This document shows, one piece after another, positions 4,054-59,930 of a stretch of 64,000 nucleotides of DNA (position 1 is the first letter of the stretch; every line of letters begins with the position of its first letter). Made by a program: the position numbers and the translations under genes. The DNA comes from Enterobacteria phage GiZh. Under the pieces are notes generated by a model that ran no database searches, was not told the DNA's origin, and saw only the letters and a list, made by a program, of their open reading frames with translations. Location: sequence record NC_054903.1; one strand, 5' to 3'.

Positions 4054-4286
4054 TATTCCACCACATATGACAGAGAGAATATTGCACACGCCATGTGAGT
4101 TGCAACTTCATCACACATATTATAACGTTTCTTAAGAAATTCTACAAGTTCTTCACTAGTAACTTCATCCATGTCGACGAAAAAATCACCATTAATGATG
4201 ACGTAGATATTTCCTTCTTGATTGAGTGCTTCAATTTTCATGATGTTCTCCTCTTTATCCGATAGTTGTATAGTATCACAGCTCAA
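4053..4286 (-). CDS. small acidic hypothetical protein
   Basis: 77 aa ORF downstream of an early-promoter-like element. Confidence 0.45.
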
Positions 4287-4305
4287 ACGGAAAGTAAACC
4301 GGTAA
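4261..4305 (-). promoter_or_regulatory. early-promoter cassette (PeSL-like)
   Basis: gatagttgtatagtatcac core plus gtaaac at 4294-4299; directly downstream of terminator 4308-4331. Confidence 0.5.
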
Positions 4306-4307
4306 AA

Positions 4308-4331
4308 TGAAAAAAGTCTCCCGAAGGAGAC
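4308..4331 (-). terminator. intrinsic terminator
   Basis: Hairpin GTCTCC-CGAA-GGAGAC plus U-run on minus strand. Confidence 0.65.
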
Positions 4332-4336
4332 TAATG

Positions 4337-4723
4337 TTATTCGAGGGAAAGAAGATACTTACTCTGGTAAAACATTCCAGTAATATCATCTATCGTGCTT
4401 TGGATGGCTGGAGGCATTTCTTTATAAATGCTGTTAGATTGGTCTAGTATGTGATCAATCATTTTAATTGTGTCGGTAGGAAGTTTACTGGCATCTGGAA
4501 TTGAAGGCGTGTATTTTCTACCAGAATACCCCAAATATTGCTCACCAAATTTATCAATCAAATCTGGCAACTCGGAGAAAATAAAATCGTATGCTTTGTG
4601 TCTAGCATAACTTTTAGTTTCAAAATGTGCAGAATGAAAATAAGCTTGTGCAGCCATTAATAAACCTAAGTATTCATCTGCCTTTGAAGGTTTTCCACTT
4701 TGTGAAAAGTCGCTGAATTTCAT
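4337..4723 (-). CDS. hypothetical protein at the T4 rI.-1 position
   Basis: 128 aa ORF immediately downstream of rI, overlapping its stop. Confidence 0.6.
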
Positions 4724-5013
4724 TCAGTCTCCAATTTAATGTTCATAATTCTAGCGTATGATTGTGCCATCTCCGCGCCTCGTTCTATACATTCAAAATC
4801 AGAAGAGCACGGGTCATTTTTATAGGTCGTTCTCATAAAACTATAGAATTGTTCAGACGATTCTACGCTTTTATTTTCAAAAAGTGTATAAACGTGCCTA
4901 ATACCAGATTCCATAAATTTATCAAAATGAGGATCGACATTCGCTTCAATCGATGGAGATAAAACAAATGACAATCCTAGCATGGCAAAAAGTGCCGTTG
5001 CTTTTAAGGCCAT
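4720..5013 (-). CDS. rI: lysis inhibition regulator rI
   Basis: 97 aa; MALKATALFAMLGLSFVLSPSIEA... matches T4 RI as recalled; N-terminal signal-anchor. Confidence 0.85.
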   Translation of the reverse strand: MALKATALFAMLGLSFVLSPSIEANVDPHFDKFMESGIRHVYTLFENKSVESSEQFYSFMRTTYKNDPCSSDFECIERGAEMAQSYARIMNIKLETE

Positions 5014-10631: not shown

Positions 10632-11105
10632 TTATTTGAACGATTTAACGTACTGAATAGAACCTTTACTATTCACAAAGGCAATTTTACCATTTTTATT
10701 ATACATGGTAGCAGTACGTTGATAACCATAAGTTTGTTTACCAGATTGATAACCAACTAATGCGAAATTATCTTCGCCCATTTTATTCTGTTTAGCGCGA
10801 ATGCGTTCATGACCATGTGCCATAAGAACCTTAGCATCACCAGTTGCAATGGATCGACGAGTTTTTTCATCTTCAACTGTATTAACAAAGTCGTCAAATG
10901 AATCAAATTTAGCATGAGATTTATTATACAATTTTCCATCTACTGCATAATTATATCCCTGTACATCCATCTCAACTTCTGTACCATCATCCAATACAGC
11001 AGTGATTTTTTGACCTTTTTTAAATTTCAAAAGATCAGTAAAAGATTCAGCAATAATTTGAGAATTAATAGCTGCTTCAGTGATAAATTCTTGATATGTT
11101 TTCAT
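10632..11105 (-). CDS. internal-protein-like (capsid-targeting leader)
   Basis: 157 aa; N-terminus MKTYQEFITE then AAIN resembles the T4 IP leader with a gp21-type cleavage site. Confidence 0.7.
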   Translation of the reverse strand: MKTYQEFITEAAINSQIIAESFTDLLKFKKGQKITAVLDDGTEVEMDVQGYNYAVDGKLYNKSHAKFDSFDDFVNTVEDEKTRRSIATGDAKVLMAHGHERIRAKQNKMGEDNFALVGYQSGKQTYGYQRTATMYNKNGKIAFVNSKGSIQYVKSFK

Positions 11106-11590: not shown

Positions 11591-12121
<531 letters not shown>

Positions 12122-14407: not shown

Positions 14408-15001
14408 TTATTTCAGAGAATTAATGTATTCCTGAACATCGGCAGAGGTAGTTTCAACCCCAGAAATATTGCCATTAAAGGTTTCAACTCGAGCAAGAGT
14501 ATCTTCAATATCAACCTTAGTCAGTGCTGCAATTTCAACTACATCATCAGCAGTACTAATTCCGAGGGCATTCGCGGCGCGAGTTTCACGGATATATTCC
14601 AATTTAACTGCAAGTTCTTGGCGAGCATCATCTAACTCAACTACTTTCTTGGCAATTTCAATTCGCATTTCAGCATAACCATCAGCTTTAGTAGTCAACT
14701 GCTCAGCTGTTCGACGATATAGTAAACCGAGTTTAGCATGCATTGTTACATCTTGACCTTCAGAAAGAAGCTTGCGAATTTCACGCTCTTTTGATTCGGC
14801 CTGCTTATTCTTTTCGACAATAAGTTCACGAATACGCTTTTCTTCATTAATAGATTTAACAGAAGCAGTTTTTAGATCTTTAATCTTATCAAGTAGTTTT
14901 GCTGCCGCAGCAGTATACTGTTCTTCAACAGATAGATTTTTAGCCATAGCAGAACCAAGTTTAGTGCGAATAAACTCAACAATTTTCTTCAGCATGTTCA
15001 T
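14408..15001 (-). CDS. coiled-coil hypothetical protein
   Basis: 197 aa, charged heptad-like composition. Confidence 0.5.
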
Positions 15002-15039
15002 AGCATTTCCTTTAGTTAATTAAGGGTTTTATAATCCGT

Positions 15040-15075
15040 GGGAGTATTATACTCTACTCCCAAGAGTTTGTAAAC
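15040..15075 (-). promoter_or_regulatory. early promoter with inverted repeat around -10
   Basis: gtaaac 15069-15074; inverted repeat gggagta/tactccc encloses TATAAT-like loop. Confidence 0.45.
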
Positions 15076-15405
15076 TTATTCTTCGTCCAATTCATCAATA
15101 AATTTATCGATACTACTATTAATAGACTCATCGATGATTAACAAAGCATCATCTATAATATTAATATTTTCTAAAGCATCAATATAAGCTTGATTGACTA
15201 TAGACCATGCCCTTTGAAAATATGGGGCTTCATCATCAGGACTGAACCAACGTACACCTTCAAAGATACGTTTAGCATAATCCAACACCCATTGTACAGG
15301 CATGTTTTGAGAGCGTTCATTAAACTCTTCAAAGTCCTTAGATTCAAAAAGCTCTTCAGGATAATAATTTCTATTACAAAAAGCTTTACTAAAGTTACGT
15401 TTCAT
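15076..15405 (-). CDS. hypothetical protein
   Basis: 109 aa ORF with promoter-like element upstream. Confidence 0.5.
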   Translation of the reverse strand: MKRNFSKAFCNRNYYPEELFESKDFEEFNERSQNMPVQWVLDYAKRIFEGVRWFSPDDEAPYFQRAWSIVNQAYIDALENINIIDDALLIIDESINSSIDKFIDELDEE

Positions 15406-15424
15406 AATGTTCTCCTCAAAGTTA

Positions 15425-15465
15425 TAGGCTCATAATATCTCAATCATGAGCCTGTGTAAACTTAT
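15425..15465 (-). promoter_or_regulatory. early promoter with inverted repeat around -10
   Basis: gtaaac 15457-15462; inverted repeat ggctcat/atgagcc encloses aatatctcaatc. Confidence 0.4.
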
Positions 15466-15788
15466 TTCATATTATTGAAATATTCTTCAGCAATTTCATC
15501 ATTATCATGATAAACTTTAGAAGACAGTTTAACATAACTTTCAGCAGTGAACATGTTAATCACAACCTTTACAGTATACCACTGACCATCTTCATTACCC
15601 ATTACTGCGTAAGTTTCAAACAACGGATGATCAGGACCGATAACTTTAATATCATTCACTGTACGACCGAAATCTTCTGAAACACATTTCATAAAGAAGT
15701 TGAACAGCTCACCGTAATTATCCATTTCATTCTCCAAGTTATTTTCTGTATCAGTAGTTGATAGTTGTATAGTACCATGGAAGGACAA
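15462..15788 (-). CDS. hypothetical protein
   Basis: 108 aa ORF downstream of a promoter/stem-loop repeat. Confidence 0.5.
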   Translation of the reverse strand: MSFHGTIQLSTTDTENNLENEMDNYGELFNFFMKCVSEDFGRTVNDIKVIGPDHPLFETYAVMGNEDGQWYTVKVVINMFTAESYVKLSSKVYHDNDEIAEEYFNNMK

Positions 15789-15815
15789 GGATGTAAACCG
15801 TTTTGTGAAAAAATT
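15758..15815 (-). promoter_or_regulatory. early-promoter/stem-loop cassette (PeSL-like)
   Basis: tagttgatagttgtatagtaccat...gtaaaccgttttgtgaaaaa; near-identical to copy at 486-556. Confidence 0.5.
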
Positions 15816-15931
15816 TTTAAAAAGTTTTGGGGAATTCTAGGGCAGGGAGGGGAAATCAAAGGATAGGATAATATATTATAAAGGGTAGAAACTAAATGAT
15901 GTCTAGAGAGGCCTGGAAAGGCCTAGATACC

Positions 15932-15958
15932 AAAAAGCCCCAACCTTTCGGCTAGGGC
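15932..15958 (-). terminator. intrinsic terminator after IP-like gene
   Basis: Minus sense GCCCUAGCC-GAAA-GGUUGGGGC-UUUUU; near-copy of terminator at 16486. Confidence 0.65.
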
Positions 15959-15966
15959 TAAGAATG

Positions 15967-16440
15967 TTATTTGATTTGTTTAGCAGACCAAATGCGGTCT
16001 TTAATAATTTTTTGGATGTCTTCAACATATTCAAGAGAGTGAACATGTGGGTTATCTTTGAAACTATAAGCACGAGCTAGCTTTTGGCCTTCAGTTTTAA
16101 TTACTAAAAGCTCTTTAAGGATAGCTTCATATTTGGAGATAATTCCTTTAACAATATTTTTCTCTTGTGCGACTTTAGGATCTGCTTTAGGAGCAGGTTT
16201 ACCTGAAGCCTTTGCAAAAGCAGCTCCAGTAGCAACTAAACTTTTCCAGGCCATACTAACTGCATTTCCCGTAAATCCTTCCGCTTTCATATCGCGAGCA
16301 AATTGGAATCGTGACTCATCGGAAGCATCTTTATAGGAATATTTACCCGCGGCAATGGCAGCTTTTGCAACAGCTTGAATTTCAGTGCTAGATGCTTCAT
16401 TTAACACCGCTTCATTTAAAAATTGAGCATATGATTTCAT
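15967..16440 (-). CDS. internal-protein-like (capsid-targeting leader)
   Basis: 157 aa; MKSYAQFLNE then AVLNE; minus-strand TATAAATA upstream; flanked by two related terminators. Confidence 0.65.
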   Translation of the reverse strand: MKSYAQFLNEAVLNEASSTEIQAVAKAAIAAGKYSYKDASDESRFQFARDMKAEGFTGNAVSMAWKSLVATGAAFAKASGKPAPKADPKVAQEKNIVKGIISKYEAILKELLVIKTEGQKLARAYSFKDNPHVHSLEYVEDIQKIIKDRIWSAKQIK

Positions 16441-16476
16441 CTTATTTCCTGTTTTAATTTGTAGATTTAATATACT

Positions 16477-16484
16477 TATTTATA
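16477..16484 (-). promoter_or_regulatory. late promoter (TATAAATA) for IP-like gene
   Basis: Minus-strand TATAAATA 37 nt upstream of ATG at 16440. Confidence 0.55.
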
Positions 16485-16485
16485 C

Positions 16486-16513
16486 TAAAAAGCCCCAACC
16501 TTTCGGTCGGGGC
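16486..16513 (-). terminator. intrinsic terminator ending the tRNA/stable RNA cluster
   Basis: Minus sense GCCCCGACC-GAAA-GGUUGGGGC-UUUUU. Confidence 0.7.
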
Positions 16514-16559
16514 TAAGCCTTGCGGCAACCTTGTCGGGGTTCCACCTGCTAAGGCAAGT

Positions 16560-16830
16560 GTTTGTACGAAACGCCGGGATTCGAACCCGGTTATTAAGTA
16601 GTTGACGCTACTCAATATTTTTAAAAGGCCATATCTCGACCATATCCGAACGTTCCGTCAAAAACGCTACTCGGCTTACGGCAAAGATATTTCCTCGAAT
16701 CGATAATTCGGTGCGCCGTTTCTGCTGTGATGTAAGGGGGCATTAACCGATCGTAAAGATTTGTTAATGCCAGTCCTTACCCAGGGAACATCAGTCCGAC
16801 GACTTACCGGTAGCGACCCGGTTTCTTGTT
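16560..16830 (-). ncRNA. possible stable small RNA(s) downstream of tRNA-Arg (T4 rnaC/rnaD-like position)
   Basis: No ORF; tRNA-like T-arm CCGGGTTCGAATCCCGG on minus strand near 16573-16590; ends at terminator 16486-16513. Confidence 0.3.
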
Positions 16831-16906
16831 TGGTCGAGGCAGTAGGGATCGAACCTACGACCTAGGACTTAGAAGGTCCTTGCTCTTCCTTCTGAGCTAT
16901 GCCTCG
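16831..16906 (-). tRNA. tRNA-Arg (anticodon UCU)
   Basis: Hand-folded cloverleaf: acceptor CGAGGCA/TGCCTCG, loop CTTCTAA, T-arm GTAGGTTCGATCCCTAC, encoded CCA. Confidence 0.75.
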
Positions 16907-16910
16907 GATT

Positions 16911-16985
16911 TGGCGGACGTGATAGGATTCGAACCTATAACCAATCGCTTAACAGGCGATCGCTCTGCCATTGAGCTACACATCC
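16911..16985 (-). tRNA. tRNA-Asn (anticodon GUU)
   Basis: Acceptor GGATGTG/CACGTCC (one G-U), anticodon loop CTGTTAA, T-loop TTCGAAT, CCA. Confidence 0.7.
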
Positions 16986-16989
16986 AAAT

Positions 16990-17076
16990 TGGTGGGGAGT
17001 GATGGAGTCGAACCACCCGAGTCGCAATGACAATGGATTTACAGTCCACACCGCTACCTCTACGGGATAACTCCCC
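16990..17076 (-). tRNA. tRNA-Tyr (anticodon GUA), long variable arm
   Basis: Acceptor GGGGAGT/ACTCCCC, anticodon loop CTGTAAA, 87 nt, CCA. Confidence 0.7.
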
Positions 17077-17088
17077 TAATTCATAATT

Positions 17089-17163
17089 TGGTGGCCCTGG
17101 GTGGAATTGAACCACCATCTGGCGATTATGAGTCGCTTGCTTGAACCTTCCAGCTACAGGGCC
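17089..17163 (-). tRNA. tRNA with CAU anticodon (Ile2-like)
   Basis: Acceptor GGCCCTG/CAGGGCC; anticodon arm GCGACTCATAATCGC resembles tRNA-Ile(LAU); CCA. Confidence 0.7.
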
Positions 17164-17164
17164 T

Positions 17165-17240
17165 TGGTGCTGATTGACGGAATCGAACCGCCGACCTTCT
17201 CATTACAAGTGAGTTGCTCTACCTACTGAGCTAAATCAGC
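17165..17240 (-). tRNA. tRNA-Thr (anticodon UGU)
   Basis: Acceptor GCTGATT/AATCAGC, anticodon loop CTTGTAA, T-loop TTCGATT, CCA. Confidence 0.75.
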
Positions 17241-17245
17241 AAAAC

Positions 17246-17335
17246 TGGCGGAGGCGATAGGATTTGAACCTATGAGTCGCCGGAGCGACTGCCGGTTTTC
17301 AAGACCGGTGCATTAAACCACTCTGCCACGCCTCC
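17246..17335 (-). tRNA. tRNA-Ser (anticodon UGA), long variable arm
   Basis: Acceptor GGAGGCG/CGCCTCC, anticodon stem-loop CCGGT-CTTGAAA-ACCGG, 90 nt, CCA. Confidence 0.75.
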
Positions 17336-17337
17336 AG

Positions 17338-17411
17338 TCTCCATACAAGGATTTGAACCTTGGACCTCCTGATCCCAAATCAGGCGCTCTACCAAACTGA
17401 GCTACACGGAG
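17338..17411 (-). tRNA. tRNA-Pro (anticodon UGG)
   Basis: Anticodon stem-loop CCTGA-TTTGGGA-TCAGG, T-arm CAAGGTTCAAATCCTTG; CCA not encoded. Confidence 0.7.
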
Positions 17412-17421
17412 TAAATTAAAT

Positions 17422-17495
<74 letters not shown>

Positions 17496-17500
17496 AAATT

Positions 17501-17587
17501 TGGTGCGAGAAGTGGGACTCGAACCCACAAGGAAATCATTCCGCAGCATTTTAAGTGCTGTACCTTTACCAATTTGACCATTCTCGC
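17501..17587 (-). tRNA. tRNA-Leu (anticodon UAA), long variable arm
   Basis: Acceptor GCGAGAA/TTCTCGC, anticodon stem-loop CAGCA-CTTAAAA-TGCTG, 87 nt, CCA. Confidence 0.75.
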
Positions 17588-17588
17588 G

Positions 17589-17661
17589 CTGGGAATAAAG
17601 GACTCGAACCTTTGCATCCTGGAATCAAAATCCAGTGCCTTACCAACTTGGCTAATTCCCA
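17589..17661 (-). tRNA. tRNA-Gln (anticodon UUG)
   Basis: Acceptor TGGGAAT/ATTCCCA, anticodon stem-loop CTGGA-TTTTGAT-TCCAG; 1 nt from tRNA-Leu. Confidence 0.7.
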
Positions 17662-17758
17662 ATTATTAACAAAGGCTCTTAAGCAAGAACCCTTGATGAT
17701 AGAGGGTATTAATCAGTGCGATATGAGTTAATAATAACAAATAATTCTTAAAGCATAT

Positions 17759-18052
17759 TTACCATTTATGATAATACATATTTACGATGCATTCAAGACC
17801 CAAAGGATTCTTGAAAATATCATATTCAAGAGGACCTTTTTCTGTTTCAATAAAGAAATCAAAATTTACTGTATTAAATTTACGGTCTTCCTTTACTAAT
17901 TTAACTTGTGAAGATGAACGGTCAATGTAAACCTTTTCAACTTCAAAATATGTTAAAATGCCATAATCATCAATCAAGGCTTTAGCCGCGTCTTGATCAT
18001 ATTTATATCCATTTTCAATGGACGATACTTTCGCATAAAGAATCATTATCAA
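17759..18052 (-). CDS. hypothetical protein
   Basis: 97 aa ORF in track. Confidence 0.5.
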   Translation of the reverse strand: MIMILYAKVSSIENGYKYDQDAAKALIDDYGILTYFEVEKVYIDRSSSQVKLVKEDRKFNTVNFDFFIETEKGPLEYDIFKNPLGLECIVNMYYHKW

Positions 18053-18468
18053 CCTTCATCAACAATAGTATGCGTATTGGCATTTACAATTTGCCACCAA
18101 TCAAAGCGATTGGAACCATAATCTGGTTTGTTTTCATTTTCTTTGATAATGTCACGGAGTTCATCTTCAGTGGCGGCTTTCGCGATTAAATCAGCATATC
18201 CACCACGAGGATAATAATTATCACCTGCAAAAAGTAAAAAGTTTGGTTTAATGTTATTGAACTCTTCAAGAGTAATAACCTTTCCTGACGGTTGAACAAT
18301 CTCTACATATTTATATCCCAATTTTTGAGCAGCATCTACTGCTTCAAGCAAAGTATCATGAGCCCATCCAATTTGACAACCTGGCTTTTCAGATGGATTA
18401 GCCTGATAATCCGCATACACTTTGTACATTCTATTCACCTTTAGAAATTTTATCCATAACGATAGCAA
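18049..18468 (-). CDS. hypothetical protein
   Basis: 139 aa ORF; 4-nt overlap with downstream ORF. Confidence 0.5.
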   Translation of the reverse strand: MLSLWIKFLKVNRMYKVYADYQANPSEKPGCQIGWAHDTLLEAVDAAQKLGYKYVEIVQPSGKVITLEEFNNIKPNFLLFAGDNYYPRGGYADLIAKAATEDELRDIIKENENKPDYGSNRFDWWQIVNANTHTIVDEG

Positions 18469-18616
18469 TTAAACCAATTAAAAATGCTACTACAAGTGAA
18501 AACACATTTTCTGCTGTAGTCAATAATCCGCATATAAATCCAACAAACATTGAAAAACTAAAAGCAGAAGCAGAAATTGCAATAGCAACATTTCGAATTA
18601 ATTCACAACGTTTCAT
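18431..18616 (-). CDS. small membrane protein
   Basis: 61 aa hydrophobic ORF downstream of promoter/stem-loop at 18630-18680. Confidence 0.4.
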   Translation of the reverse strand: MKRCELIRNVAIAISASAFSFSMFVGFICGLLTTAENVFSLVVAFLIGLIAIVMDKISKGE

Positions 18617-18629
18617 TTTATTCTCCTCG

Positions 18630-18680
18630 GTAGTTGATAGGGTAATAGTATCACTACCCTATCTAAAAGTAAACTTATTT
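18630..18680 (-). promoter_or_regulatory. early-promoter/stem-loop cassette (PeSL-like)
   Basis: Core TAATAGTATCACTAC flanked by inverted repeat gataggg/ccctatc; gtaaac 18669-18674. Confidence 0.5.
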
Positions 18681-18908
18681 TTTACGAAAAATTGATTTAT
18701 TTTCTGCTGCCCATTTTTCAATAACTGCAGCAGGACCAGTAACAACAATTTTATCACCGTAATCTTCTGCGGCGAGTTGACCGAAATTATCTAATGCATC
18801 ACGAAGAACTCCATGAGGCATTTCACCCATTTTATCTTTCTTGCCGGTGTAAATAAACTCAACTTTTACATCAGAAGATTCAGCGATAAACTCTTTGAAA
18901 GTTTTCAT
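18675..18908 (-). CDS. internal-protein-like (capsid-targeting leader)
   Basis: Start placed at MKTFKEFIAE then SSDV (track ORF extends to 18974); about 77 aa. Confidence 0.6.
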   Translation of the reverse strand: MKTFKEFIAESSDVKVEFIYTGKKDKMGEMPHGVLRDALDNFGQLAAEDYGDKIVVTGPAAVIEKWAAENKSIFRKK

Positions 18909-18934
18909 TTTGATTTCCATTTGGTTTTGTTTTG

Positions 18935-18990
18935 ATAGAGTAATAGTATCACTACTAAAACCCTGTGTAAACAACTTTGTGAAATTATTT
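18935..18990 (-). promoter_or_regulatory. early-promoter cassette (PeSL-like)
   Basis: Same core; gtaaacaactttgtgaaattattttaaa shared with copy at 19262. Confidence 0.5.
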
Positions 18991-19242
18991 TAAATCTTCT
19001 AATCGTTTCTTCATCTTAGAACCATTTTTAGCAATTTCTCCTGCATCTGAGCATAATGCTAAAAGCGCTTTAACTTTAGTTTGGTCTCCTTTAAAAGATG
19101 AAGGATCGACTGCAGCAGCAAGTTCTTTAATACGAGAGAAAAGACGCTCAGCTTCAGCTAAAGCCATTCCAAGCTTTACTTCCATACCGTGGGAAGATTC
19201 GGTGATAGTAGTTTTTGTAGCAAACTCTTTGAAAGTTTTCAT
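18985..19242 (-). CDS. internal-protein-like (capsid-targeting leader)
   Basis: 85 aa; MKTFKEFATKTTITE then SSHG; AGGA upstream of ATG. Confidence 0.65.
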   Translation of the reverse strand: MKTFKEFATKTTITESSHGMEVKLGMALAEAERLFSRIKELAAAVDPSSFKGDQTKVKALLALCSDAGEIAKNGSKMKKRLEDLK

Positions 19243-19261
19243 TTTATTTTCCTAATTAATT

Positions 19262-20011
<750 letters not shown>

Positions 20012-22699: not shown

Positions 22700-22707
22700 T
22701 ATAAATA
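22700..22707 (+). promoter_or_regulatory. late promoter (TATAAATA) for gene 53
   Basis: TATAAATA 29 nt upstream of ATG at 22736. Confidence 0.65.
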
Positions 22708-22714
22708 GATAATA

Positions 22715-22722
22715 TATTTATA
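22715..22722 (-). promoter_or_regulatory. late promoter (TATAAATA) for gene 4 operon
   Basis: Minus-strand TATAAATA in the divergent region. Confidence 0.55.
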
Positions 22723-59918: not shown

Positions 59919-59926
59919 TATTTATA
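59919..59926 (-). promoter_or_regulatory. late promoter for genes 26/25
   Basis: Minus-strand TATAAATA overlapping the plus-strand copy in ATATTTATAAATA. Confidence 0.5.
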
Positions 59927-59930
59927 AATA
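59923..59930 (+). promoter_or_regulatory. late promoter for gene 51
   Basis: TATAAATA 18 nt upstream of ATG at 59948. Confidence 0.6.

Follow-up and report, generated by a model that had tools for sequence, protein, structure and literature searches.

Why does a single small gene stand between two copies of the same transcription terminator, at a site where phage T4 has no gene? The site lies between rnaC, the last gene of the operon for tRNAs and stable RNAs, and e.8 in Enterobacteria phage GiZh, a T4-like phage of the genus Tequatrovirus. We analysed a 64,000-nucleotide (nt) stretch of this phage (NC_054903.1), called the window below, and all coordinates are window positions unless a locus of another phage is named; over the region studied the window is 99.9% identical to Escherichia phage JLBYU24. 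A first-pass annotation had described an internal-protein-like gene bracketed by two hairpins and had proposed that promoter, gene and terminator were inserted together, by recombination, at the terminator that ends the tRNA cluster. Our analysis makes it likely that the gene, here named ORF157 for its 157 amino acids (aa), belongs to a self-contained 555-nt module for a late internal protein, in which the repeated terminator serves as a recombination joint, and that this module is probably ancestral and was deleted in T4.

On the minus strand the order is ten tRNA genes, rnaD, rnaC, a hairpin, the motif TATAAATA, a Shine-Dalgarno sequence, ORF157, a second hairpin, the e.8 promoter and e.8. 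The module itself comprises the following features:

16482..16517, minus strand: copy 2 (upstream) of a 36-nt direct repeat, holding the operon terminator; stem at 16491-16514 (AGCCCCGACC-GAAA-GGUUGGGGCU) and T tract at 16487-16490.
16477..16484, minus strand: T4-type late-promoter motif TATAAATA, beginning 2 nt past the T tract and 36 nt upstream of the ATG.
16447..16450, minus strand: Shine-Dalgarno sequence AGGA, 6 nt before the ATG, read from the sequence.
16411..16440, minus strand: codons 1-10 (MKSYAQFLNE), predicted capsid-targeting sequence and prohead-protease site (L-N-E/A), from the match to IPIII positions and a motif scan.
15967..16440, minus strand: ORF157, 157 aa, basic, predicted all-helical, phrog_2280; from the list of open reading frames (ORFs) and PHROGs.
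15927..15962, minus strand: copy 1 (downstream) of the 36-nt direct repeat, holding the cassette terminator; stem at 15936-15959 (AGCCCUAGCC-GAAA-GGUUGGGGCU) and T tract at 15932-15935.

The reading frame with its MKSYAQFLNE leader, the promoter motif on the minus strand at 16477-16484 and the two hairpins are all present where the first-pass annotation had placed them, to within 1 nt.

The gene is bracketed by two copies of one terminator

A consensus scan of 14900-19400 returned exactly two terminators on the minus strand, with stems running from 16514 to 16491 and from 15959 to 15936, the latter starting six bases past the ORF157 stop codon. Each copy has the sequence expected of an intrinsic terminator: 10 base pairs (6-7 of them G-C), a GAAA loop and a UUUU(U) T tract. 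On the minus strand the hairpins read AGCCCCGACC-GAAA-GGTTGGGGCT (copy 2) and AGCCCTAGCC-GAAA-GGTTGGGGCT (copy 1), and in comparison with shuffled sequences their folding energies were low, at -20.3 kcal/mol (z = -3.95) for copy 2 and -18.3 kcal/mol (z = -3.22) for copy 1. The near-identity of the two hairpins that had been reported is borne out by the direct repeat around them, which is identical at 32/36 positions, spans 555 nt from start to start and is unique in the window. Its 20-nt core occurs twice in the window, where none was expected in 100 shuffles even with 3 mismatches, and the likeness reaches past the stem, to CTT before it and GTAT after the T tract.

The two copies had also been said to carry compensating differences in their arms, and this part of the earlier description fell. 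All three differences (CCGACC versus CUAGCC) are on the 5′ arm, while the 3′ arm, GGUUGGGGCU, is identical. Each is a transition whose partner base is G or U (C-G to U-G, G-U to A-U and A-U to G-U), so that wobble keeps the pairing in both copies. True compensatory covariation was looked for in 22 hairpin copies and not found; the variation is of the tolerated, one-sided kind.

State of the site among related phages

A 1.5-kb query around the site (window 15400-16900) matched 778 phage records, and in tblastn searches ORF157 was found in 510 phage records and ORF188, a second gene of the same site, in 165. Alignment with other T-even genomes, the check that the first-pass annotation had suggested, revealed the cassette present, absent with a single hairpin left, joined by a second cassette, or replaced; the relatives do not all carry the same gene with a single terminator, and the second hairpin is conserved outside GiZh. 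T4, RB3 and PST have the empty site, consisting of e.8, one hairpin and rnaC with no ORF. ORF157 alone is found in the window, SHBML-50-1, R5505 and fD1, ORF188 (187/188 aa) alone in RB14, and the two in tandem in Phaginator, ECO78 and fPS-90. Mosigvirus APCEc01 and ST2 carry ORF154, a 154-aa allele that is 76% identical and has other neighbours, and Mosigvirus moskry carries a 210-aa gene, ORF210. To estimate frequencies we classed 60 evenly spaced records out of 707 matching ones by alignment span, and checked each class on at least one fetched record: about 23 had ORF157 only, 11 had both genes, 5 were empty and 4 had ORF188 only, the rest being Mosigvirus or other arrangements.

The empty site of T4 allowed us to locate the junction. 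Upstream of the hairpin T4 matches the flank of copy 2 at 57/60 positions and that of copy 1 at 14/60, whereas downstream it matches the flank of copy 1 at 58/62 and that of copy 2 at 16/62; its single hairpin with T tract is identical to copy 2 at 28/28 positions and to copy 1 at 25/28. The T4 junction therefore lies inside the approximately 20 nt shared by the two copies (CCGAAAGGTTGGGGCTTTTT), which in these alignments is the position predicted for a cassette bounded by a repeat.

The same joint recurs in every T4-like locus examined. The hairpin after rnaC continues into the e.8 flank at 3 loci, into ORF157-family alleles at 16, into ORF188 at 1, into ORF210 at 2 and into other ORFs at 3, and the hairpin after the 3′ end of ORF157/154 continues into the e.8 flank at 6 loci and into ORF188 at 7. 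The hairpin of ST2 is chimeric, its 5′ side being of the Mosigvirus ORF154 type and its 3′ side continuing into the ORF188 module. The ORF188 module itself ends in a different stem (CCCTATC...GATAGGG), which has only GGGCTTTTT(G/A)GT in common with the main hairpin, and its boundaries are thus formed by 9-12 nt repeated from the 3′ end of the terminator. The window and SHBML-50-1 differ by 1 mismatch over the 630 nt that run from e.8 across hairpin 1 into the 3′ end of the ORF, and 19 further mismatches all fall within 16030-16428; judged by this alignment, the difference is an allele patch whose ends lie in intervals that hold the two hairpins (resolution 15742-16029 and 16429-16506).

The record of ST2 (OM982647, 171 kb) is filed under Guernseyvirinae/Kagunavirus, but the phage is plainly T4-like, with a tRNA cluster, e.8 and internal-protein-type genes, and its taxonomy is mislabelled. 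Its locus is mosaic, with ORF154 of the Mosigvirus type and both ORF188 and e.8 of the Tequatrovirus type.

A predicted late promoter adjoins the upstream terminator

The TATAAATA motif has the orientation, the intergenic location and the position upstream of a gene that are expected of a T4 late promoter, in which it stands at about -10, and we predict that it drives ORF157. It is kept in 12/12 of the Tequatrovirus copies of the ORF157 family that were examined (including the 153-aa allele of locus L022) and in the Jiaodavirus homologue; Mosigvirus copies of ORF154 have only AATAAATA in its place. It is on this position and on conservation in relatives that the case for a late promoter rests. 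A scan for sigma-70-type sites between 16441 and 16520 found none. The record of fPS-90 already annotates a predicted late promoter and three terminators at the site, without interpretation.

The region upstream of ORF188 (loci L003, 2633-2749, and L006, 1668-1753) is without the consensus TATAAATA and holds only GATAAATA or AATAAATT-like strings, and ORF188 may be expressed by read-through of the ORF157 terminator or from a weak late promoter; in RB14 it stands directly after the operon terminator. Elsewhere in the window, tandem minus-strand TATAAATA motifs were observed 13 nt apart at 12099-12106 and 12112-12119, and plus- and minus-strand motifs face each other or overlap at two places (22700-22722 and 59919-59930).

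ORF157 resembles an internal protein in its leader

In the T4 internal protein IPIII the first ten residues are enough for packaging, positions 4 and 7 acting in targeting and positions 8 and 10 in processing (PMC9026906). ORF157 has Y4, F7, L8 and E10 at these experimentally defined positions, followed by Ala11, and Y4 and F7 are as in the IPII/IPIII leader MKTYQEFIAE; a second LNE/A motif is found at residues 13-15. Judged by its sequence, the leader thus has what is expected of a capsid-targeting sequence (CTS) and of a site for the prohead protease gp21 (L/I-x-E, positions 8-10), at which we predict cleavage. The protein is basic (pI 9.46), as IPI-III are, and the distribution of the gene, which is absent from T4, RB3 and PST, indicates that it is dispensable. 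The match to the IPIII positions agrees with the earlier view of an internal-protein-type gene, and ORF157 is most likely an internal protein of the T4 type.

The leader is retained in all paralogues of the locus (MKSYAEFLTE, MKTYAEFLTE, MYTFNEFLAE and MKFKEFLAE), while the remaining protein diverges, and in comparisons of ORF157 with IPI, IPII, IPIII and IpIV the leader alone aligns. The profile phrog_2280 is matched over the full length by ORF157, ORF188, ORF210 and the corresponding protein of Klebsiella Jiaodavirus KEN39. With the leader removed, shuffle-tested pairwise scores related ORF210 to both ORF157 (z = 6.7) and ORF188 (z = 5.7). Because of this profile and the pairwise scores through ORF210, we consider the cassette proteins to be probably diverged paralogues. 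Homologues of ORF157 form only 14 clusters, all within Tevenvirinae.

A hint at the location of the protein comes from phage fD1, whose Gp140 is the orthologue of ORF157 (about 98% identical, with 3 differences in 157 residues). In purified virions Gp140 was particle-associated by liquid chromatography-tandem mass spectrometry at the authors' strict threshold, and the adjacent e.8 homologue was not; we take this detection as supportive only. That ORF157 is instead a late cytoplasmic protein, never packaged, whose leader owes its likeness to shared ancestry of the 5′ end, would suit the indirect case for packaging and cleavage, the presence of clearly non-structural proteins on the fD1 list and the labels in the databases ('hypothetical' in the records examined, 'unknown function' for phrog_2280), but is very doubtful given that all four key leader positions are kept, also in every diverged paralogue of the locus, that a ten-residue CTS alone packages foreign proteins (PMC9026906) and that a late promoter suits the timing of prohead assembly.

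Age of the module and direction of change

In KEN39 the tRNAs are followed by a hairpin (AGCCCCGTC-TTCG-GACGGGGCT), by TTTTTAGTATAAATA and then by a 177-aa protein that starts with the leader MKFKEFLAE and is homologous to ORF157 in its N-terminal two thirds. The phrog_2280 family is thereby found directly after the operon terminator in three genera, Tequatrovirus, Mosigvirus and Jiaodavirus. This placement suggests that the presence of the module is ancestral and that the empty site of T4, RB3 and PST is probably a deletion between the repeats. As for the second hairpin, the most economical reading is that it arose by duplication of the terminator, or by conversion of the downstream one, in the lineage of Tequatrovirus and Mosigvirus. 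Of the earlier proposal of an insertion at the terminator of the tRNA cluster we therefore keep the unit and its boundary, the operon terminator, and not the polarity, a deletion in T4 being likelier.

The opposite course of events, in which the T4-like empty site is ancestral and a foreign promoter-gene-terminator module integrated recently in the hairpin and duplicated it, would explain the clean single-hairpin site of T4, RB3 and PST. Flanking direct repeats are also what homologous exchange with a circular intermediate should leave (the PeSL mini-circle model, PMC2839356), and the GC content of ORF157 (0.373) is near the window mean (0.361), so that the donor could have been another T-even phage. 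We nevertheless regard a recent insertion as unlikely, since the same family follows the operon terminator in all three genera, with the Jiaodavirus junction GGGGCTTTTTAGTATAAATA identical, since occupied sites far outnumber empty ones (about 5/60 of the sampled records), and since deletion between direct repeats is the simpler event.

A further explanation would make the repeat a bystander. The terminators would be alike from the need for a strong terminator, by an old duplication or gene conversion, and the modules would move by recombination in the rnaC and e.8 flanks, possibly boosted by homing-endonuclease co-conversion. The flanks are indeed 95-99% identical among relatives, markers that flank the neighbouring tRNA cluster are co-converted as a result of SegB homing there (PMC2330249), two unrelated terminators surround the Jiaodavirus module, and similar hairpins exist in unrelated phages. 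The structure of the joints renders this explanation improbable: the likeness of the copies extends beyond the stem (32/36), which argues for common descent over convergence; the T4 junction falls precisely within the 20 nt that the copies share; a short repeat of its own, taken from the 3′ end of the terminator, delimits the ORF188 module; and the ST2 hairpin joins sides from two modules. Moreover, the states with no module, with ORF157, with ORF188 and with both cannot be reached by flank exchange alone, and at least the founding events need breakpoints in the hairpin.

Mobility of the cassette by a homing endonuclease of its own was rejected, as ORF157 is the only ORF in the unit, is no nuclease and has no match among Pfam and NCBIfam models. 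A 2026 paper on SegB amplification was considered as a parallel and set aside, as it concerns a tRNA-Tyr/segB repeat and not the cassette hairpin.

Points that weigh against a late internal-protein module joined at its terminator

Several results speak against the interpretation that we prefer, and they concern the hairpin, the promoter, the protein and the route of exchange. Selection on the hairpin structure is undemonstrated by comparison. In the 22 hairpin copies, taken from the window and from 14 annotated phage records (15 phage sources in all, with no record chosen by pattern search), no pair was altered on both sides and 4 pairs varied one-sidedly, pairing was no better than in column shuffles (283/500), and the Mosigvirus copies have two mismatched pairs. 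The hairpin sequence is also generic. An exact-pattern scan of IMG/VR for the 3′ half of the hairpin, which fixes the 3′ arm by construction and was left out of the covariation test, returned 34 loci, about half of which (16-20, by counting of non-rnaC contexts) were unrelated phages with a near-identical terminator. In KEN39 the downstream terminator is unrelated to the upstream one, and a module can thus do without duplicated terminators. Existing modules could be moved without the repeat, since the conserved flanks with rnaC and e.8 allow homologous recombination.

The TATAAATA motif taken alone is weak evidence, as it is common in the window (24 copies, compared with 9.5 +/- 3.3 expected). 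Without the leader, direct similarity between ORF157 and ORF188 was not detectable (z = 0.6), and in hhalign comparisons of a thin ORF157 alignment with ORF188 and ORF210 only the leader aligned. The AlphaFold2 model of ORF157, built from a 10-sequence alignment, is helical with a mean pLDDT of 70.7, and Foldseek searches with it against PDB and BFVD retrieved only its own orthologue; the modelled fold gives no functional clue. Finally, the fD1 virion proteome is unspecific, with 113/277 gene products flagged, including DenV.

The contigs from IMG/VR indicate that the terminator sequence is widespread beyond T4-like phages. One unrelated 251-kb phage contig has five near-identical CCCCGACCGAAAGGTTGGGG hairpins within 7 kb (L030, 1918-8634), and a separate group of 14-40-kb contigs (L013, L014, L017 and others) has TGCCCCGGCCGAAAGGTTGGGGC at one conserved site.

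Proposed working of the module

If our interpretation is correct, the upstream hairpin would end the tRNA/stable-RNA transcript and so insulate the module from early and middle transcription upstream. The TATAAATA late promoter, which abuts the upstream T tract, would start an independent late mRNA, and the second hairpin would stop this mRNA ahead of the e.8 early promoter. The MKSYAQFLNE leader would take the ORF157 product into the prohead core, where gp21 would cut after Glu10 and perhaps also after Glu15, with predicted mature N-termini at Ala11 (AVLNEASSTEIQAVAK) and Ala16 (ASSTEIQAVAK). The mature form, basic and helical, would be packed alongside the DNA and injected, and the analogy of Ip1-3 makes the neutralisation of a host defence its probable role. 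Exchange within the approximately 20 nt common to the hairpin copies would delete or add whole modules, which may account for the genomes that carry none, one or two modules of a single diverging family (ORF157/154, ORF188 and ORF210; phrog_2280).

Surroundings of the module

The flanks of the variable site contain the following features:

16831-17661, minus strand: ten tRNA genes of the operon (ARAGORN, Rfam tRNA).
16831..16906, minus strand: tRNA-Arg(UCU), the last of the ten tRNA genes (ARAGORN, Rfam tRNA).
16710..16826, minus strand: homologue of rnaD (species 2 stable RNA), 88% identical to T4 rnaD, without an Rfam family.
16565..16703, minus strand: homologue of rnaC (species 1 stable RNA) and last gene of the operon, 99.3% identical to T4 rnaC over 139 nt.
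15769..15797, minus strand: sigma-70-type early promoter of e.8 (TTTACA-17-TACTAT), found by scan and kept in T4; conserved right flank.
15462..15725, minus strand: e.8 homologue, 87 aa from MDNYGELF, 95.8% identical to T4 e.8, phrog_2678; conserved gene bounding the variable site.

Transcription of the T4 operon has been reported to end after species I RNA (PMC2330249; Broida & Abelson 1985 cited there). In the window, too, the boundary of the module is the terminator that ends the operon, as the first-pass annotation had it, the hairpin being separated from tRNA-Arg by rnaD and rnaC. An Rfam search of 15000-19500 at gathering thresholds recognised only the ten tRNAs and left rnaC, rnaD and the hairpins unmatched. 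The two stable RNAs are adjacent and differ in their identity to the T4 counterparts (99.3% for rnaC versus 88% for rnaD), and rnaC holds a tRNA-like T-arm (CCGGGTTCGAATCCCGG). The set of tRNAs is not that of T4: in place of the segB and tRNA-Ile of T4 (L001, 5174-6531) stand Asn, Tyr and Met, and the window is without segB. Endonuclease ORFs occur at various spots within the tRNA clusters of relatives (Phaginator, 4125-4775; fPS-90, g137c).

A second presence/absence polymorphism, independent of the first, lies about 300 nt from the cassette. In many relatives the stable RNAs are separated from tRNA-Arg by an additional ORF of roughly 350 bp (116 aa, MKGNVYLVVHDL...; L002, 2925-3275; L005, 2927-3277; L004, 3605-3955), which is absent from the window around 16826-16831. 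It corresponds to 'trna.2' of T2L, matching primer #24 of the SegB paper, and is called 'endonuclease' in one record, without Pfam support.

On the e.8 side, a small palindrome, GGCCTGGAAAGGCC, is located at 15910-15926 just downstream of hairpin copy 1, with the inverted repeat TCTAG...CTAGA around it. T4 keeps it only in part (AAGCCTTTCCAGACC), and it could form another weak stem-loop or serve as a site of processing. The region upstream of e.8 (about 15723-15860, early promoter and UP-element) has 3-5 further matches in each related genome, and partial records of T4 and T2 that are unrelated match it as well; it is an early-promoter repeat in dispersed copies, and recombination could take place there too.

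Relation to known systems

Internal-protein (IP) genes that share a leader and sit in polymorphic loci, shuffled through conserved flanks, have been known since 1994 (Repoila et al., EMBO J), as described in PMC12373910, PMC9026906 and PMC4122927. The classical loci are that of ipI, between 57B and the tRNAs, and that of ipII/ipIII, next to e (PMC12373910, PMC9026906, PMC4122927). Like the cassette, they encode small, basic, non-essential proteins with only a leader of about 10 N-terminal residues in common, close relatives differ in how many genes a locus holds and in which ones, and the shuffling has been attributed to the conserved flanks or leader. Ip1-3 each inhibit a distinct GmrSD enzyme, and Ip2 and Ip3 were matched to specific GmrSD restriction enzymes only in 2025, in a study that counts two Ip loci (PMC12373910). 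The cassette differs in its site, between rnaC and e.8, which is empty in T4, whereas the literature consulted counts two Ip loci (Repoila 1994 itself is outside our scope and could cover the site). Neither ORF157 nor ORF188 was found under an ip name in the records examined or, Repoila 1994 being outside its scope, in the literature searched, and in every public record examined both carry the label 'hypothetical' or an equally uninformative one.

The window has leader genes at the classical loci too, all on the minus strand: IpIV at 10632-11105, IpV at 18985-19242 and IpVI at 18675-18908. By size and position they are the ipIV (157 aa; Pfam DUF7412, phrog_3155), ipV (85 aa) and ipVI (77 aa) of PST. 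IpVI starts with MKTFKEFIAE at 18908, while the mechanical ORF list begins at an upstream TTG (18974). Unlike IpV and IpVI, which have sigma-70-type early promoters upstream, ORF157 is directly preceded by a terminator and the predicted late promoter.

Close in architecture are the PeSL cassettes (Arbiol et al. 2010, PMC2839356; Comeau et al. 2014, PMC4122927), in which a stem-loop is combined with an early promoter and for which motif-mediated module exchange, empty sites with a single motif and mini-circles have been described. There, as here, a small ORF is flanked by two copies of a motif, relatives without the ORF (here T4, RB3 and PST) have one copy, and the proposal is that an ORF is excised or inserted, along with its own promoter and terminator, when the motifs on its two sides recombine. 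The PeSL composite, which combines a strong sigma-70-like early promoter with a stem-loop, is not found at the cassette, where the stem-loop adjoins the T4-type late promoter TATAAATA, and in contrast to the approximately 100 nt repeated in PeSLs, the repeat is essentially the terminator only (36 nt).

The operon terminator of T4, identical to copy 2 as described above, has the corresponding position, about 50 nt downstream of rnaC. T4 has it once, with the early-promoter region of e.8 behind it, whereas in the window the terminator is duplicated and its T tract abuts the predicted late promoter. The morons of lambdoid phages are, like the cassette, autonomous transcription units present or absent between two conserved genes; they are described as independent of conserved flanks (PMC2839356) and are expressed from the prophage, whereas the flanks of the cassette are a direct repeat and its predicted expression is late in the lytic cycle.

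The shuffling of IP genes and that of regulatory cassettes are both already established, and no new principle is involved. The present case differs from the known ones in a site that is empty in T4, a family without an ip name and a late-type promoter in the joint. More tentatively, and with rather less than even confidence, we suggest that the rnaC-e.8 gap is an unrecognised third internal-protein hotspot of Tevenvirinae, occupied by one fast-diversifying, late-expressed phrog_2280 family (ORF157/154, ORF188, ORF210 and the 177-aa form of Jiaodavirus) whose copy number varies from 0 to 2 by unequal recombination at the joint of terminator and late promoter, and that its members are new injected inhibitors of host defences that have no matched phage counter-measure.

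Among the anti-defence tools of T-even phages, injected internal proteins act first, and as probable internal proteins ORF157 and ORF188 provide a short list of candidate injected inhibitors for orphan defence systems. Variation in the cassette may help explain differences in host range among therapeutic Tequatrovirus isolates. The locus is a clear natural example of a terminator that doubles as a recombination joint for whole gene modules, and it extends the PeSL idea from early-promoter to late-promoter cassettes. Its main value is twofold: it exposes a gap in annotation, and with it candidates for injected anti-defence proteins, and it is a clean example of a terminator joint.

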